This document shows, piece after piece, positions 636 through 61,289 of a stretch of DNA of 64,000 nucleotides. Position 1 is the first letter of the stretch, and the number at the start of each line of letters is the position of its first letter. The stretch lies in NCBI RefSeq assembly GCF_053078305.1, contig NZ_CP166875.1; one strand, 5' to 3'. The notes under the pieces were generated by a model that saw nothing but the letters and a program-made list of their open reading frames with translations, ran no database searches and was not told where the DNA came from. The position numbers and the translations under genes were made by a program. This stretch comes from a plasmid.

Positions 636-1838
636 ATGATGATGAATATGCACATTACCCGAACTCTCATCGCATCTGCTGTTTTATTTTCCTTTAATTC
701 AACAGCCGCAACTTCATATTTTGAAGCCCGCAATGATGCAATGGGGGGAACCGGGGTAGCCTCCTCTCACTACGGTGTGGCACCTCTGGCAAACCCGGCC
801 CTGCTGACAAAAGCCGGTCCGGAAGATGACTTCAGTCTTCTGCTTCCGTCCGTTGGTGGGCAATTGTCCGATCCGGGTAATATCAGTGACAACGCAGACA
901 AAATCAGTGATGACTGGAAAGCCTTTGATCGTGCCATCGACAGTCAGAGCAACGTGTCGCAGACTGCTGCACGTCTGAAGACGCGACTTCAGGACTTCCG
1001 TCACACACATGCTGACGCACAGGTGGGAACATCTGCTGTGGCGACTCTTCCCGGTGACACCCTCGCTGCCGCTCTGATGCTGAAAAGCTACGGTACGATC
1101 AGTGTCGACGGTAAAGTCAGTGATGCCGACCTGAACTATCTGGAAAGCATTGCAAACAGTAACGGTCAGGATGTGGATAAAGACAGACTGACCTCTCAGG
1201 CTTTTGCCCGTGCCGCACTGGTCACCGATGTGGGTATTGCTCTGGCTACTGAACTGGAAACGGCCGGACAAAAGTGGTCTCTGGGCTTCACACCAAAATT
1301 CCAGCGTGTTGACCTGTTTAACTACAACGTGCTGGTTAAAAATTACGACAGCAGCGCTTTCAAAGGCGACCGTTACCACAACACCAGAAACGGCATTAAC
1401 GCTGATATCGGGGCCAGCATGGACCTGGATGACAACTGGACACTGGGTCTGGTCGCACAGAACCTGCTCCCCCGCAGTATTGAGACAAAGGAAGTGAACG
1501 GTGTCACAGAAACTTTCAGGATCCGCCCGCAGGTGACTGCCGGTGTCTCCTGGCACAACGACATGTTCACTACAGCACTGGATGTTGACCTGACCCCGGC
1601 CAGTGGCTTCACATCAGACAGTAAACGTCAGTTTGCTGCCATTGGTGCTGAATTTAATGCCTGGAAATGGGCACAGTTACGTGCAGGCTACCGCCAGAAT
1701 CTGGCCAGCAATGATGGCAGTGCGTTCACCGCCGGGCTGGGTATCTCACCATTTGATGTCGTCCATATTGATGTGGCGGGTATAGCAGGCACAGACAACA
1801 ACTACGGTGCCGTTGCACAACTGCAGTTCACATTCTGA
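636..1838 (+). CDS. secreted/outer-membrane protein of the transfer operon (TraF-like by position)
   Basis: ATG at 636 after AGGAAA; N-terminal signal-peptide-like segment (MMMNMHITRTLIASAVLFSFNSTAA); C-terminus ends ...AQLQFTF, typical of a beta-barrel terminal signature. Confidence 0.45.
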   Translation: MMMNMHITRTLIASAVLFSFNSTAATSYFEARNDAMGGTGVASSHYGVAPLANPALLTKAGPEDDFSLLLPSVGGQLSDPGNISDNADKISDDWKAFDRAIDSQSNVSQTAARLKTRLQDFRHTHADAQVGTSAVATLPGDTLAAALMLKSYGTISVDGKVSDADLNYLESIANSNGQDVDKDRLTSQAFARAALVTDVGIALATELETAGQKWSLGFTPKFQRVDLFNYNVLVKNYDSSAFKGDRYHNTRNGINADIGASMDLDDNWTLGLVAQNLLPRSIETKEVNGVTETFRIRPQVTAGVSWHNDMFTTALDVDLTPASGFTSDSKRQFAAIGAEFNAWKWAQLRAGYRQNLASNDGSAFTAGLGISPFDVVHIDVAGIAGTDNNYGAVAQLQFTF

Positions 1839-2196
1839 TCATCTCTGCCCCGGTACTGACCGGGGTATCCAGACCTGCATCCTCGCGTTTTCCGACCATC
1901 AAACGACACAGCCAGACCTGTAGTGCTGCCTCTGATCTGGCTGTTATCTGACATATCATTTTCGCATGAGGAAATGCATGTTTAACAAAAATAAAACGCA
2001 TATCGAAAACAAAGCCTTTATGGTGGAACCGTTCCGGGATCCGACAGCTAACGAATGTAATGTCGTGATAGCAAACGATATTTGTATCCGGGTAGCACTG
2101 TCTCCCTCTGAGGTGCTCCAGCCATTCAGCAAAAACACGAACCAGTAAATCCTCCCCACAACGCTTTCTTCTTTCACTGCTCAGGAAAAATACACC

Positions 2197-2649
2197 ATGA
2201 ACCGTATGATACCTGCGGGATGTCTCGCCGTACTCTGCCTGAACGGCTGCCATCTCCCCCCGGATAATACAGCTCCGACCAGAAAGTATGGTGCTGCCTC
2301 TGATGTCGCCGTCGCCCGGCATGCGCAGTATCAGCTATGGGGGCAGGGAATTTACTCTGCAGCCCTTCCGGAGCGTCAGTCCGGCGGCAGTCTGAAGGCT
2401 CACAGCGACCGTGTTTCCTTTGACTGGGAAGGCGATGCCCTGGAATTGCTCAACGAACTGGCCCGTCTGCGCGGCCAGCAGTTCAGCTACAGCGGCGTCC
2501 GTCTCCCCTTACCCGTCTCACTGCACGTCCGCGACATGACCTTTGCTGATGTCCTTCGTATCACTGAAGCCCAGACTGCCTGGCGGGCAACACTCTCGCA
2601 GTCAGCCGGGCGTTTACATCTGTCTTTTATGACGCCGGAGAAAAAATGA
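2197..2649 (+). CDS. T4SS lipoprotein (TraH/DotD-like)
   Basis: Lipobox LNGC after signal peptide; stop overlaps next start (ATGA); size and order match IncI traH. Confidence 0.5.
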   Translation: MNRMIPAGCLAVLCLNGCHLPPDNTAPTRKYGAASDVAVARHAQYQLWGQGIYSAALPERQSGGSLKAHSDRVSFDWEGDALELLNELARLRGQQFSYSGVRLPLPVSLHVRDMTFADVLRITEAQTAWRATLSQSAGRLHLSFMTPEKK

Positions 2650-3482
2650 AAACACACCTGTGTCTCCTGCTGTCTGCTCTCCTGCTTACAGGCTGTGCCG
2701 GACAGCATCACCGTTCTTCTGCCGTCATGACAGAAAACGCACCGCCCCCGGATATCCGTGCATGGCTGACGCCCTCCGGAAACCAGGATGATGGTATTTC
2801 AGATACCCGTCGTCAGATGCTCACGGATGCCGGCAGAACGCTGGGATTCCGTGGTGGAAAAGCACAGCGCTCATGGGAACTGATTCAGGCACTGAATGCC
2901 CGGGAAAGTACCCTGAATGCCCTGTATGATTTCCGGCCTCTCATCAGCAAGGAAGGCTGGCTGCCTCCTGTTATCGATGAAGCGCAGGATGTTGCACACA
3001 TCAGACCGGACCAGATAAGAACAGCCTCCCGTGTCTGGACCATCCTCCGCCCGGAACGCTTTGTCAGTAATCCACCTGGATGGCGTGACTGGCTGCTGAA
3101 AGGACTCTCAACCACCGCCACACCAGGCACTGAAGGCCGGGTTGTGCCGGAAGACCGGGCACAACGCAGACTATGGGAAAACGCCTTACGTCAGGGATGG
3201 CAGGAAGGGCGCCTCAACGCAGATCTCACACTGGAAGCTAATCAGAAGCGCCTGACCCGTGATTACCGGGGCATGATGCTTTACGCCCTTCTGTGGCGTC
3301 AGGGCATGATCACACGTCCAGATGTCACAGAGCAGATGCAGACGGTTACCGGCAACGGGCAAAAACTCATCACTGGCGATCGCGTCCGCCGCCTGAAAAC
3401 ACATGCTGAATTTACGCTGCAGAAATCGCGCTGGCGCCCTCTTGTCAGCACCGAAGGAGAGAAAAATGATATCACCAGATGA
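2646..3482 (+). CDS. T4SS lipoprotein (TraI/DotC-like)
   Basis: Signal peptide with lipobox LTGC; ATGA coupling to the preceding gene; position immediately before the DotB-like ATPase. Confidence 0.5.
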   Translation: MKTHLCLLLSALLLTGCAGQHHRSSAVMTENAPPPDIRAWLTPSGNQDDGISDTRRQMLTDAGRTLGFRGGKAQRSWELIQALNARESTLNALYDFRPLISKEGWLPPVIDEAQDVAHIRPDQIRTASRVWTILRPERFVSNPPGWRDWLLKGLSTTATPGTEGRVVPEDRAQRRLWENALRQGWQEGRLNADLTLEANQKRLTRDYRGMMLYALLWRQGMITRPDVTEQMQTVTGNGQKLITGDRVRRLKTHAEFTLQKSRWRPLVSTEGEKNDITR

Positions 3483-26848: not shown

Positions 26849-27467
26849 TGACGCACAGGACGGAAAAAATAATAGCTGCCGGACAGCAGCAACCAGCAGT
26901 CGTCCGGTAAAAAAGACAAACAAGGCGCATTGAGGTCAGCCTTCGCAACAATCCGGCGGCAGATTCTCTACCGCCGTGTTGCCCGTTAACGTTTAACTTC
27001 GTAGGCTAACGTTGCCACAAGCACCGTATTTCCCTGCTCGATACGAAATCCGCAAAGCGAATCCCTCACCATCCAGACAAAACACAGTATCGTCACACAG
27101 ACGACGATTAACATCATTAAAAACGTTCGTTGTGGCATCGCAGCCCCTCCATTGCCTTTCGGCCGTCATCGGGCTACTATAATGTTGTTGAGGCATTACA
27201 GTGGGCCCTGGGTTGATTGATAAAAAAATCGCCTGGGGCTTTCTGCTACATGCCGTCCACAAAACGCTTTCGGCATACAGCCTCAAGCGCCCGCCGCTAT
27301 TCTAATCGTTTTCCAGTCCGCCACAATCCTTTTCATGCCACCACGTATTTTGTGTCAGGGACAGAAATAAAGCCGGAAAGTGACTACGTGTGCACACATC
27401 TGTTTTCCGGGCTGCAGGCATCGTGTTATTTTCTGAAATGCAAAATAATAAAAAACAAGGACACATC

Positions 27468-30045: not shown

Positions 30046-30385
30046 TTATTTGCTGATATGAAGAAAAAAACCATTTCAAAGAAAATAAATGGCAAAAATA
30101 CAGCATGGAAAAAAATTGCCATTTTTACCGCCGCGTTATTTTTAATATTTGCTGTCTGCTGGTCGTAATAAGCAGAATAACAGAAAGGTGTAAAAATGAA
30201 CCTGGTTGATGCATTTGTCACTAAAGTGATATCCGGACCGTATGAAGAATACGGAAAATGGTGGGTGGATGTAGAATATATTTCCTGGGGAGTTCCGGGT
30301 AAAAGCCGGCTCATGTTTGACTCACGGGAACAGGCACAGGAAGTGCAGGAAGGTTTTCGATTTTTAACCTGAGCATATTTTGTTA

Positions 30386-30415
30386 AAGGGCAGAAGGCGG
30401 TGACCCTCTGCCCTT
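30386..30415. terminator. hairpin after toxin copy 1 (bidirectional)
   Basis: Perfect 9-bp inverted repeat AAGGGCAGA ... TCTGCCCTT. Confidence 0.4.
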
Positions 30416-30434
30416 AAGTACGTTTCCGGGATTA

Positions 30435-30530
30435 TCAGTCAACCAGTTCCCGGATCAGTTCCAGGAGAGCTATCACTGCGTTAGCCACAGCAACAACCGC
30501 CCTGAGAACGATGATTAACAGGTTAATCAT
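30435..30530 (-). CDS. DinQ/TisB-like small hydrophobic toxin peptide, copy 1 (31 aa)
   Basis: Encodes MINLLIIVLRAVVAVANAVIALLELIRELVD; GGAG 8 nt before ATG; the IALLELIR core matches DinQ as I recall it. Confidence 0.4.
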   Translation of the reverse strand: MINLLIIVLRAVVAVANAVIALLELIRELVD

Positions 30531-30845
30531 CCGCTTCTCCATCAATGGAGAAAGAACACCGTGGTTTGCCCTTACATTGCCTGTCGCCACGTTTTCTATA
30601 GTGTCAGTTATAGACAGTTCTTCTCCGGCCAGAGCACCAAAACCAGCACCACCTGATGTTTTGGCCAGGACTTGCAACCTGTTCATCCCGGTGAACGATA
30701 TGCCGGAAAGAACGTGCCTCAAAGCTGACACACCGAGTATATACTTATACTGTGCTTGCAGAAATATTATTTCAGCCGTATTATTTCATAGTCAGTTATA
30801 GGCAGTTATCTTCCGGTCAGGGCTACCAACTTCGATCCGGAATCG

Positions 30846-30876
30846 CAAAAAAACCGGCCTCACCAGTCGGTTTTTT
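30846..30876 (+). terminator. A-tract / hairpin / T-tract terminator, possible 3' end of an antisense sRNA
   Basis: AAAAAAACCG-loop-CGGTTTTTTT; sits at the far end of the toxin leader. Confidence 0.4.
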
Positions 30877-31077
30877 TGCGTCTGTACCTCCTCCCCGGAC
30901 AGCAGTTCTCTCACTCCCGTTGAATATTTCCTGTTGAATTTTACGAAAATACGGCAAATGGGAGATATCGAATATATTTCCTTGGGTGTAGTCGGTAAAA
31001 ACCAGCTCATGTTTGACTCACAGAAACAGGCTCTGGAAGTACAGAAAGTAATCTGTCCGTAGATTATTAAAGGGCAG

Positions 31078-31107
31078 AGGGCGGTGACCCTCTGCCCTTA
31101 AGTACGT
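31078..31107. terminator. hairpin after toxin copy 2
   Basis: Same 9-bp inverted repeat as at 30386. Confidence 0.4.
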
Positions 31108-31118
31108 TTCCGGGATTA

Positions 31119-31214
31119 TCAGTCAACCAGTTCCCGGATCAGTTCCAGGAGAGCTATCACTGCGTTAGCCACAGCAACAACCGCCCTGAGAACGATGATT
31201 AACAGGTTAATCAT
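31119..31214 (-). CDS. DinQ/TisB-like small hydrophobic toxin peptide, copy 2
   Basis: Identical 31-aa peptide and GGAG site to copy 1. Confidence 0.4.
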   Translation of the reverse strand: MINLLIIVLRAVVAVANAVIALLELIRELVD

Positions 31215-31575
31215 CCGTTTCTCCATCAATGGAGGAAATCACTGTTGTTTACTCTTACATTGCCTGTCACAACAGCTCTTTCATTGTTAGCTGAAAAGAG
31301 ACTTCCTCCGGCCAGAGCACCAGACGCAGCACCACCTGTTTGTCCGGCCAGGTCTTTGAATAGCACAGATCCATAGTCCCGATGGATTGATGCGAAGGTA
31401 AGTCTCCAGACAAGGCTAACTTGCTGATTATACTTGTTTCAGGCGATATCGCTACTCCCGGAACAATAGACTGTAACGAACAGATTGCGATCAGGTGAAT
31501 ATAACGATATTCTGGTAACGTTAGTTGAAAAGAGACTTCCCCCGGGCCAGAGCCACCCACTCTCCCTGGGATCGC

Positions 31576-31606
31576 AAAAAAGCCGGCCTCACCAGTCGGC
31601 TTTTTT
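31576..31606 (+). terminator. A-tract / hairpin / T-tract terminator (second copy)
   Basis: AAAAAAGCCG-loop-CGGCTTTTTT; same loop sequence as at 30846. Confidence 0.4.
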
Positions 31607-31750
31607 GTGCCTGTCTCTCACCACCTTCTGCTGTTCCTGTGAAAATGCCCTGCTGAATTCAGCCCTGCCCGGTCATTACCGGCGATTGTTCGCATTAATT
31701 CCACTCAGCCTCATCCCGAAATTTATCTATTTATCGATGGAGGAATCCTC

Positions 31751-33067
31751 GTGTCTTACCAACACTCCCCCACAACAGAAGACCCGATGAACATATGGTA
31801 TATCGTTGGCACCATATGTCTGCTCTTTGCGCTTCTCATCTGGCTCTTTTTACCCGACATCGTCTTTGCCACCTGCCTGATCCTGCACACAATGTGGGGG
31901 ATGACTGACTGGGGGCCTTTTCACCATTTTGCCGCCCCCCGTTACAACCTGCTGGCCATCACTGCTAACAACGCGGCAACCATCACTTTCGGCCAGTGGC
32001 TGGATGTTATGTCCCGGACAGTGGGGATCCTCTGGTTGATTCTGCTTCCCATGACATTCGGCTTTCTGTGGATGTGGTTTCACCATCCGGCCCAGCCCCG
32101 TTTTACCCGCAGGCCACTGAATATCCACACACTGCCCCATATTTTTTCAGCTCTGTCACCGGCGATCGCCCCCGTTCTGGCTGATGGAGACAACAACAGA
32201 CTCTTCCACGGACAAAAACGTCCCGAGCGCCGTGTCGCACTAACCCCCGAAGTCTTTGTGGAGCAGAACAACCTTATCCGCAACATGCAGCTCGATGTTG
32301 CGTCCACACGCCAGTGCTTCATGGCGCAACTGGGGCAACCACTGACCAGCTGGAAAGACATGGCCCCACATGAAAAAGCGCTCTTTGCCATCTTTGGCCT
32401 GCAGTTCTTCCTCGGTGACCGGAAAGCAGCGGTAGCCCTGATGAACAACCTCAATCTCTCCTGCAGGCTCAAAAGTAAACGGGACCAGGGGCGTTTCAGC
32501 ACGCCGGTGTATTCACTGGCCAGAAACGCCTTTATCCGGGTCATCAAAACAGAAGGCGCACAACAGTGGCTCAGGCAGCACCGTTACGTTCGCAGCGGTC
32601 TGGTCTGGCTTTACGCACATGATTTGCGCCTGACGCCTCCGAACTGGCTGTGGCTCAAGGGCGTTGACCGGACGCTCTTCTATGCCCTTCACCGGGCAAA
32701 CACCACAAAAGGCTTCATCGAAGGGGCCGGCGTGGTGGCCGTTGCCCGGGCAGAAAATGAAGCCAGCCGTCTCGGCCTCCCCTGCCCGGAACCCTGTGTG
32801 GAAGAGGCCATTGAAGGGCTTCGACGGGACATGCTGGGGCTGGGCCTGATATGGGACGAACCTCAGCCAGATCGCGATCGTAAACGTCAGATCAGGACCC
32901 GCTGGTCACTCACGGATGACGTGATACCCCGCCGCCATGATAACGACGAAGACACTGACACTGGTGAAACCACCGAAACCACCGAAACCACCGAAACCAC
33001 CGAAACCACCGAAACCACCGAAACCACCGAAAAACAGCATCCCGCCGACAAGGAAAAAGAACAATGA
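31751..33067 (+). CDS. T4SS inner-membrane protein, DotM/IcmP-like (TrbA-like)
   Basis: GTG start after GGAGG; N-terminal TM helices; C-terminal ETT tandem repeat; precedes the trbB/trbC-like genes. Confidence 0.5.
   Translation: MSYQHSPTTEDPMNIWYIVGTICLLFALLIWLFLPDIVFATCLILHTMWGMTDWGPFHHFAAPRYNLLAITANNAATITFGQWLDVMSRTVGILWLILLPMTFGFLWMWFHHPAQPRFTRRPLNIHTLPHIFSALSPAIAPVLADGDNNRLFHGQKRPERRVALTPEVFVEQNNLIRNMQLDVASTRQCFMAQLGQPLTSWKDMAPHEKALFAIFGLQFFLGDRKAAVALMNNLNLSCRLKSKRDQGRFSTPVYSLARNAFIRVIKTEGAQQWLRQHRYVRSGLVWLYAHDLRLTPPNWLWLKGVDRTLFYALHRANTTKGFIEGAGVVAVARAENEASRLGLPCPEPCVEEAIEGLRRDMLGLGLIWDEPQPDRDRKRQIRTRWSLTDDVIPRRHDNDEDTDTGETTETTETTETTETTETTETTEKQHPADKEKEQ
32966..33028 (+). repeat. in-frame tandem 9-bp repeat (gaaaccacc, 6-7 copies)
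   Basis: Perfect tandem units encoding (ETT)n at the TrbA-like C-terminus. Confidence 0.85.
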
Positions 33068-60856: not shown

Positions 60857-61015
60857 CTACTTACCGGATTCGTAAGCCATGAAAGCCGCCACCTCCCTGT
60901 ATCCGTCTCTGTAACGAATCTCGCACAGCGATTTTCGTGTCAGATAAGTAAATATCAACAGTGTGAGACACACAATCAACACACACCAGACAAGAGAGCT
61001 GCGTGGTAGTTTCAT
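60857..61015 (-). CDS. hok: Hok/Gef-family type I toxin
   Basis: Encodes [52 protein letters not shown]. Confidence 0.8.
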
Positions 61016-61072
61016 GGCCTTCTTCTCCTTGCGCAAAGCGCGGTAAGAGGCTATCCTGATGTTGTCAGACAT
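60857..61072 (-). CDS. mok-like overlapping leader frame
   Basis: In-frame upstream extension ([19 protein letters not shown]-) of hok, as in hok/mok/sok loci. Confidence 0.4.
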
Positions 61073-61289
61073 ATGGGATGCCTCGTGGGTTAATGAAAAA
61101 TTAACTACGGGGCTATCTTCTTTCTGCCACACAACACGGTAACAAACCACCTTCACGTCATGAGGCAGAAAGCCTCAAGCGCCGGGCACATCATAGCCCA
61201 TATACCTGCACGCTGACCACACTCACTTTTCCTGAAAATAACCCGCTCATTCAGGCTGTTTACGGGTAATCTGTGTGATTGTTGCCGCA

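Follow-up and report, generated by a model that had tools for sequence, protein, structure and literature searches.

The 64,000-nt stretch of plasmid DNA analyzed here, which we call the window (contig NZ_CP166875.1 of NCBI RefSeq assembly GCF_053078305.1), carries on its minus strand two 31-amino acid (aa) open reading frames (ORFs), at 30435-30530 and 31119-31214, that encode the same peptide (MINLLIIVLRAVVAVANAVIALLELIRELVD). An earlier note on this DNA, made from the letters alone, had called the two copies nearly identical; they agree at 96 of 96 nucleotides. Both lie within a 189-nt direct repeat (30365-30553 and 31049-31237, 95% identity by the repeat finder) that is flanked by more diverged repeats, the other blocks being 70–87% identical between units, and the whole forms a tandem of units of ~700 bp with a unit-to-unit spacing of 684–729 bp. 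On the far side of each leader stands an A-tract/hairpin/T-tract element on the plus strand (30846-30876 and 31576-31606). A two-unit pattern repeated in this way is far beyond chance. We identify the locus, with a probability of close to nine in ten, as a tandem pair of dqlB–agrB type I toxin–antitoxin (TA) modules that belong to the DinQ-like family and sit in an I-complex (IncK2/Z-type) conjugative plasmid backbone. The earlier note had proposed a tandem pair of DinQ-like type I toxins, each with its own small RNA (sRNA) ending at the plus-strand terminator, and this proposal is borne out by the NCBIfam DqlB and Rfam AgrB models, by alignment with dinQ and by the complementarity of each sRNA to its cognate leader. 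The identification draws on sequence, family membership, anatomy, complementarity, and covariation.

Many plasmids of Escherichia and Shigella carry a 100%-identical copy of the 1455-bp region that covers the locus. On such identical plasmids of type IncK2/Z, RefSeq has the entry "dqlB: DinQ-like type I toxin DqlB" twice. One of them, NZ_CP023387.1, is typed IncK2/Z, MOBP, and MPF_I, and there the locus sits between a thermonuclease gene and trbA.

The family assignment of the toxin is clear. The peptide matches NF041473, "DinQ-like type I toxin DqlB," over its full length (residues 1-31 on model positions 1-31, the same sequence in both copies) with a score of 63.7 bits where the cut-off is 35, whereas the DinQ equivalog NF041472 is matched by residues 18-29 only and gives 22.2 bits, short of its cut-off of 30. 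The core IALLELIR that the earlier note gave as shared with Escherichia coli DinQ is real, with 11/17 identities at E = 9e-5 in BLASTP against DinQ translated from MG1655. A likeness to TisB, also suggested at that stage, does not hold, as only the DqlB and DinQ models match the peptide: no TisB model is among its NCBIfam matches (E <= 1), and an Rfam scan (E <= 10) gave no match to IstR. No Zor family model in NCBIfam matched the peptide either. Just 3' of each stop codon lies a Rho-independent terminator, a feature of the dql/dinQ family, with a G+C-rich stem followed by UUUAA, a U-tract that is short as in dinQ. The hairpin in this position had been described as a perfect stem of 9 bp; it exists, but its stem is of 10 bp and is perfect only in copy 2, with one G.U pair in copy 1.

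Both modules align with the MG1655 dinQ mRNA from end to end in a three-way alignment that takes in the -10/+1 region, the leader, the Shine-Dalgarno (SD) hairpin, the coding sequence (CDS), and the terminator. The window sRNAs likewise align with MG1655 agrA and agrB, and so the comparison with dinQ–agrAB that the earlier note had proposed gives a match for the mRNA and the sRNA alike. With transcription start sites (TSSs) taken from the dinQ alignment, the toxin mRNAs are predicted to be ~350 nt long with leaders of ~200 nt; dinQ mRNA is 331 nt. For dqlB-1, an alternative match to the promoter consensus at 30795-30766 would place the TSS near 30759. The GGAG that had been read as a ribosome-binding site is indeed an SD sequence 6 nt before the AUG in both copies, but it is not an open one: it is paired with an anti-SD CUCC in a hairpin, whose homologue in dinQ is the closed SD stem-loop (PMC5066626). 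The SD is predicted to be paired, with a probability of being unpaired of ~0, in the full-length mRNAs of dqlB-1, dqlB-2, and dinQ. When 40–70 nt are taken off the 5' end of dqlB-2, the predicted probability that the SD is unpaired rises to 0.5–0.6, as in the dinQ +44 model.

The proposed means of opening lies further upstream in the leader. Element 3, the part of the agr target just 3' of CCGGAG, can pair with the anti-SD strand instead. Element 3 and the anti-SD strand are GGAGAAGAAC and GUUCUUUCUCC in the dqlB-1 leader (type W1), GGAGGAAGUC and GAUUUCCUCC in the dqlB-2 leader (type W2), and GGAGUGAGA and UCUCACUCC in dinQ. The two strands covary across seven loci (W1, W2, dinQ, and four others; 7/8 scorable), and their pairing has energies of -13.5 and -17.4 kcal/mol in the window modules. 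The dinQ-homologous 5' untranslated region (UTR), the closed SD stem-loop, and the mutually exclusive pairing elements that characterize the dql/dinQ family are thus all found here.

Diverging from upstream of each toxin promoter, without overlap of the toxin gene, is an sRNA gene of the AgrB family. The first, agr1, matches Rfam RF02891 (AgrB) over the full model 1-84 at 47.7 bits, above the gathering score of 40; the second, agr2, in the same relative position, is borderline by the same covariance model. Their 5' ends lie ~60–100 bp upstream of the predicted toxin TSSs, and the toxin start codon and the sRNA 5' end are 262 nt apart in module 1 and 307 nt apart in module 2, compared with 275 nt for dinQ–agrA. 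Both promoters share the layout of the MG1655 agrB promoter (TTGCAA-17-TAGTAT), and that of agr1 scores below the threshold of a consensus promoter scan. The earlier note had suggested that the plus-strand terminators could end an antisense sRNA, which agrees with the place where the Rfam AgrB matches end; the extent it gave, 30600-30876, is wrong, agr1 occupying 30792-30879. Nor is the sRNA a long cis-antisense RNA over that interval; both sRNAs are short (88 nt), divergent, and non-overlapping. According to T1TAdb, a divergent non-overlapping layout is common to the DinQ/AgrB, Zor/Orz, TisB/IstR-1, and ShoB/OhsC families. In the consensus structure of 12 sRNAs, a variable unpaired 5' region of ~21 nt precedes a conserved stem-loop and the terminator, and compensatory changes occur at 6 pairs.

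The 5' region of each sRNA shows extended complementarity (~30 nt or more) to the leader of its own toxin. We scored duplexes between sRNA nt 1-45 and the toxin leaders with RNAduplex, using shuffled sRNAs as the control. On the dqlB-1 leader, agr1 reaches -54.7 kcal/mol with 38 pairs, agr2 -36.8, and shuffled sRNAs -28.6 ± 3.5 (cognate z = -7.6); on the dqlB-2 leader, agr2 reaches -60.9 kcal/mol with 40 pairs, agr1 -41.2, and shuffled sRNAs -32.4 ± 3.9 (cognate z = -7.3). The crossed pairs are thus 18–20 kcal/mol weaker than the cognate ones. A contiguous seed at the sRNA 5' end spans 16 bp in module 1 and 20 bp in module 2. On the same scale, dinQ with agrB gives -66.6 kcal/mol and dinQ with agrA gives -51.1; AgrA is reported not to bind dinQ mRNA (T1TAdb, citing Kristiansen 2016). 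We extended the scoring to 8 toxin leaders and 12 sRNAs from six sources, namely the window, plasmids typed IncI-gamma/K1, IncX3, IncK2/Z plus IncQ1, and IncFII, and the E. coli chromosome. An sRNA from the leader's own locus gave the best duplex in 6 of 8 cases; in the other two, W1 and W2, the cognate was second to a same-type sRNA of another plasmid.

Table 1. Features of the two dqlB–agrB modules, in window positions
Feature	Position	Strand	Basis
dqlB-1 toxin CDS, 31 aa, one hydrophobic helix	30435-30530	-	ORF, NCBIfam NF041473, RefSeq dqlB at same position
dqlB-2 toxin CDS, 31 aa, identical to dqlB-1	31119-31214	-	ORF, NF041473, RefSeq, unit alignment
dqlB-1 terminator hairpin (GGGCAGAGGG-loop-CCUUCUGCCC, then UUUAA)	30388-30413	-	Sequence; aligns with dinQ terminator
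dqlB-2 terminator hairpin, perfect 10-bp stem	31072-31097	-	Inverted repeat I4; alignment
SD-sequestering hairpin of dqlB-1 (anti-SD CUCC 30547-30550, SD GGAG 30537-30540)	30535-30552	-	Inverted repeat, fold, dinQ homology
SD-sequestering hairpin of dqlB-2	31219-31236	-	Inverted repeat, fold
Predicted dqlB-1 -10 box TATACT (30736-30741) and TSS ~30729 (GUCAGC...)	30729-30741	-	dinQ alignment, inferred
Predicted dqlB-2 -10 box TATAAT (31427-31432) and TSS ~31420 (GUUAGCC...)	31420-31432	-	dinQ alignment, inferred
agr1 target in dqlB-1 5' UTR, includes element 3 (GGAGAAGAAC)	30603-30646	-	Direct repeat D4 with 30791-30823; RNAduplex
agr2 target in dqlB-2 5' UTR, includes element 3 (GGAGGAAGUC)	31286-31337	-	Direct repeat D9 with 31520-31545; RNAduplex
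agr1, AgrB-family antitoxin sRNA, 88 nt (5' single-stranded specificity region, stem-loop, terminator)	30792-30879	+	Rfam, fold, covariation
agr2, AgrB-family antitoxin sRNA, 88 nt	31521-31608	+	Rfam, fold, alignment
agr1 promoter: -35 TTGCAG (30756-30761), 17-nt spacer, -10 TATTAT (30779-30784)	30756-30784	+	Sequence
agr2 promoter: -35 TTGCGA (31485-31490), 17-nt spacer, -10 TATTCT (31508-31513)	31485-31513	+	Sequence
Left edge of unit 2: incomplete, degenerate copy of the 58-aa ORF (its 3' part)	30964-31048	+	Direct repeat D3, 81% identity

The mechanism that we propose is taken, step by step, from homology with dinQ–agrB, where the SD of the processed mRNA is opened by element 3, and AgrB, by binding, takes element 3 away, re-closes the hairpin, and makes a substrate for RNase III (PMC5066626). 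By this analogy, the primary dqlB mRNA would be translationally inert, its GGAG locked in the hairpin with the anti-SD, and after 5' processing, element 3 in the leader, a GGAG joined to a variable stretch, would capture the anti-SD strand and leave the SD free. The single-stranded 5' end of agr would pair with ~38–40 nt of the leader, element 3 included, which would re-close the SD hairpin and probably trigger cleavage by RNase III. Should the sRNA be the shorter-lived of the two transcripts, as it is in other type I addiction modules, plasmid-free cells would go on to make DqlB and die, the outcome known as post-segregational killing. The transcript ends, the processing, the RNase III cleavage, and the insulation of the two modules from each other are predictions. 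Toxicity, rescue by agrB, and plasmid stabilization would likewise carry over to the window modules from homologues on other plasmids. On pOXA-48, DqlB is toxic, agrB rescues, and the locus is an addiction module that kills upon plasmid loss (PMC12365149); on pOXA-484, dqlB–agrB is toxic, rescued, and plasmid-stabilizing (PMC12317039).

How the pair arose can be read in part from the distribution of identity along the two units. Given by position in unit 1, identity to unit 2 is 100% in the toxin CDS (30435-30530), 90% in the terminator and 3' UTR (30373-30434), 83% in the SD hairpin region (30531-30560), 47–70% in three segments of the leader (30561-30729), 28% in the promoter region (30730-30791), 44–50% in two segments of sRNA nt 1-52 (30792-30843), and 92% in the sRNA terminator (30844-30879). 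This mosaic, in which only the CDS-plus-terminator block is near-identical, rules out a recent simple tandem duplication. The toxin-plus-terminator block has probably been homogenized by gene conversion. Moreover, the two specificity types are found apart from each other. W1 is the type of the single module that an IncI-gamma plasmid carries (L003; 83.7% identity, query 1-690), and W2 recurs on a Salmonella plasmid (L007, locus Fb), so the pair is old or itself a mosaic. Most related plasmids carry one module.

Two other plasmids illustrate how such loci vary. On the IncK2/Z plasmid L004 (NZ_CP059004.1, 2097-2489), a deletion of ~422 bp, corresponding to window 30965-31386 and with the microhomology ATGG at its junction, has removed the dqlB-2 CDS and its target site but spared agr2 and the dqlB-2 promoter. 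This leaves a single toxin with two AgrB-like sRNAs after it, the topology of chromosomal dinQ–agrA–agrB. On the Salmonella plasmid L007 (NZ_CP022492.1, typed IncFII, 1558-3152), a tandem dqlB pair encodes two different DqlB proteins. Five sRNA genes of the AgrB family that exceed the Rfam gathering score accompany it, three of them following the first toxin and the other two the second; the sRNA nearest each toxin pairs best with the leader of that toxin. We also considered the agrA–agrB spacer of E. coli as the remnant of a second toxin leader in a decayed tandem, and found no support for this, the local alignment scores being 14–20 against a shuffle null of ~16 ± 2.

Several observations weigh against the locus being a pair of complete dqlB–agrB modules. 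Thermodynamic folding of the dqlB-1 mRNA does not predict opening of the SD upon 5' truncation; in the test modeled on the dinQ +44 end, opening was predicted for module 2 and weakly for dinQ, but not for module 1. The pairing of agr1 with its own leader is imperfect, with 27/36 Watson-Crick pairs, and its -54.7 kcal/mol is near the value for agrA on dinQ; the IncI-gamma sRNA on the W1 leader gives -61.4 kcal/mol, stronger than agr1 itself. At 38.5 bits, agr2 falls below the Rfam gathering score, yet over the full model 1-84 and with E = 4e-4. The natural variant L004, having lost the dqlB-2 toxin, indicates that the second module is dispensable. The imperfect agr1 pairing, the agr2 score, and the L004 deletion, along with the surplus of agr copies on L007, would also suit an account in which only one module works and the other is a decaying copy, as is E. 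coli agrA, the reported non-binding paralogue of agrB. We regard this account as unlikely, since in both modules the ORF is intact and identical, the SD hairpin and the terminator are kept, the -10 box is good, and the sRNA 5' end has a contiguous seed, and since selection should act against an intact toxin that lacks a working antitoxin, yet the tandem junction is found at >=95% identity in ~127 PLSDB plasmids.

A different question is whether the modules, even if complete, are stress toxins induced in the SOS response under LexA, as chromosomal dinQ is, rather than constitutive addiction modules. The LexA box of dinQ overlaps its -10 and has 12/16 matches to CTGTATATATATACAG, and a LexA-like site has been proposed at -119 of dqlB on pTF2, with a heterology index of 11.64 (PMC12211044). 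Homologous CTG-N10-CAG sites are present here, at 30653-30668 and 31336-31351, but these match the consensus at only 8/16 and 9/16 and lie inside the conserved 5' UTRs, downstream of the predicted toxin TSSs. They are the only such sites in the modules; at the position of the dinQ LexA box there is none, and the search for a LexA operator overlapping the toxin promoters, proposed in the earlier note, accordingly found nothing. Because, in addition, DqlB went undetected in SOS proteomics (PMC12211044) and the plasmid homologues act as addiction modules (PMC12365149), SOS control seems quite improbable, and constitutive transcription is more likely than control by LexA. Less credible still, to the point that we give it hardly any weight, is that the repeat belongs to a longer protein gene, either on the plus strand, a finding that the earlier note had said would undo its proposal, or as an N-terminally extended minus-strand ORF of 98 aa (30435-30731). 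A GTG-initiated 98-aa ORF does hold dqlB-1 in frame, and within the leader of module 2 RefSeq annotates a hypothetical CDS of 48 aa (~31267-31413). The N-terminal extension, however, is confined to copy 1, the ORF of copy 2 having only 36 aa, and such plus-strand ORFs as the units contain are short and lack conservation from one unit to the other. The leader aligns with dinQ at the RNA level and has RNA pairings that covary, and Dql peptides are often misannotated with a longer N terminus (Kristiansen 2016, PMC5066626). 

The two modules are probably insulated from each other and would then be two independent addiction modules, because the 5' ends of the sRNAs differ and each is matched to its own leader. 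A stronger form is that the modules are fully orthogonal, agr1 silencing only dqlB-1 and agr2 only dqlB-2, with gene conversion keeping the CDSs identical while sRNA and target diversify. We offer this form tentatively and at clearly less than even odds.

The closest known systems are the dqlB–agrB loci of pOXA-48 (IncL) and pOXA-484 (IncX3). Like these, the window has a 31-aa DqlB that matches NF041473, a position in a conjugative backbone near trb genes, and a divergent AgrB-type sRNA with ~35–40 nt complementary to the toxin 5' UTR. The DqlB of the IncX3 plasmid L005 is identical to the window peptide at 24/31 residues (hand count from translations). The loci of pOXA-48 and pOXA-484, however, are described as single modules, whereas the window has two in tandem, with different sRNA and target and an identical toxin CDS. 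With dinQ–agrA–agrB of E. coli K-12, the window shares homology over the whole length of the mRNA, including the SD stem-loop and the switch between element 3 and anti-SD, as well as homologous sRNAs (Rfam AgrB), the divergent non-overlapping layout, and the presence of more than one agr paralogue. It differs in that the window peptide has an insertion of 7–8 residues and falls below the DinQ model cut-off, in the lack of a LexA box at the promoters, in the loop of the sRNA terminator (CCUCACCAG in the window, ACGCAAAGU in E. coli agr), and in having two toxins and two sRNAs where K-12 has one toxin and two sRNAs. In a blastn search of complete E. coli genomes, the module 2 leader found plasmid dql loci and chromosomal matches of 72–73% identity, and the one match checked by coordinate, at ~3.64 Mb of the BW25113 chromosome, fits dinQ; among the matches, not all of which were inspected, none was identified as zor.

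In its arrangement, the pair closely parallels zorO–orzO/zorP–orzP of E. coli O157:H7, which we take as the near analogue of a tandem with two specificities. There too, near-identical small toxins stand in tandem, each with its own divergent, non-overlapping sRNA that pairs with the 5' UTR, and the zor 5' UTR has been reported in 2024 to be similar to plasmid dinQ-like 5' UTRs (PMC11264685). The zor–orz locus, unlike that of the window, is chromosomal, and the sRNA bodies differ. The agr terminator hairpins (30847-30877 and 31576-31606) match the 3' end of the Rfam OrzO-P model (positions 46-76) at 30.8 and 28.7 bits, better than they match the terminator of E. coli agrA/agrB. This match concerns the terminator part only and is far below the OrzO-P gathering score of 60; we do not assign the modules to the zor/orz family. 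A more distant comparison is with hok/sok (pnd), which, like the window modules, is a plasmid type I addiction system that combines a structured, stable toxin mRNA with an unstable sRNA. Unlike agr, Sok is a true cis-antisense RNA that overlaps the mok/hok leader, and Hok, of ~50 aa, is unrelated in sequence.

The hok/sok type is itself represented nearby. Matches to sok RNA (Rfam RF01794) at 27136-27292 (minus strand, 124.7 bits) and 61013-61184 (minus strand, 87.2 bits) mark two hok/sok (pnd-type) loci, and with the two dqlB–agrB modules this makes four type I TA modules in the 64-kb stretch. Convergent with dqlB-1 is a 58-aa plus-strand ORF (30196-30372), a hypothetical protein in RefSeq, which is intact only in unit 1 and whose 3' part was co-duplicated with the module. 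It also adjoins the single dqlB of L003, but has no NCBIfam match and is not beside dqlB on the IncX3, L006, and L007 plasmids. Between the nuclease gene and this ORF is an unannotated 36-aa ORF (30058-30168, plus strand; MKKKTISKKINGKNTAWKKIAIFTAALFLIFAVCWS), which, given its lysine-rich N terminus and hydrophobic C-terminal segment, could encode a small membrane protein or be a chance ORF. The 48-aa hypothetical protein of the identical plasmids, WP_001346191.1 (31267-31413, minus strand), is probably a spurious call, because it lies wholly in the dqlB-2 5' UTR and module 1 lacks a counterpart. On the other side of the locus, TrbA (31751-33067, plus strand) matches DotM/IcmP weakly, at 68 bits against a cut-off of 230, and its C terminus (~32990-33050) ends in TET/TETTE repeats (…TGETTETTETTETTETTETTETTEKQ). 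This run implies a short in-frame tandem repeat in the DNA, the length of which may vary between plasmids.

The system as such is already known, and the suggestion in the earlier note that it had not been described does not stand. The dql family, plasmid members included, and its division into dqlA and dqlB were defined in 2016 (PMC5066626); T1TAdb predicted the matching sRNAs; dqlB–agrB was validated on conjugative plasmids in 2025 (PMC12365149, PMC12317039); and RefSeq annotates both copies on the identical plasmids. dqlB has been reported on 83.2% of IncB/O/K/Z and 67.4% of IncI1 plasmids (PMC12365149). With the family named, represented in NCBIfam, Rfam, and T1TAdb, experimentally validated, and reported to be prevalent in this plasmid group, the locus carries little weight as a discovery. 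A single nuance has gone undiscussed, namely that two modules with the same toxin CDS stand in tandem while their antitoxins have diverged into two specificities; the papers open to search contain no mention of tandem modules or of distinct specificities on one plasmid. The practical value is in correct annotation, as the true 31-aa ORFs and the sRNA genes are annotated patchily, and RefSeq has probably spurious leader CDSs and no agr.

If the modules are orthogonal, the pair would amount to a two-lock addiction system, which neither a rival I-complex plasmid nor a chromosomal agr copy of single specificity could neutralize. Where a toxin is lost, as in L004, orphan agr sRNAs would then remain, and this would provide a route to dinQ–agrA–agrB and to the agr arrays of L007. 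I-complex resistance plasmids with two dqlB–agrB and two hok/sok modules should be harder to cure than plasmids with one module, and a tandem of diverged specificity may give an advantage in competition between plasmids.

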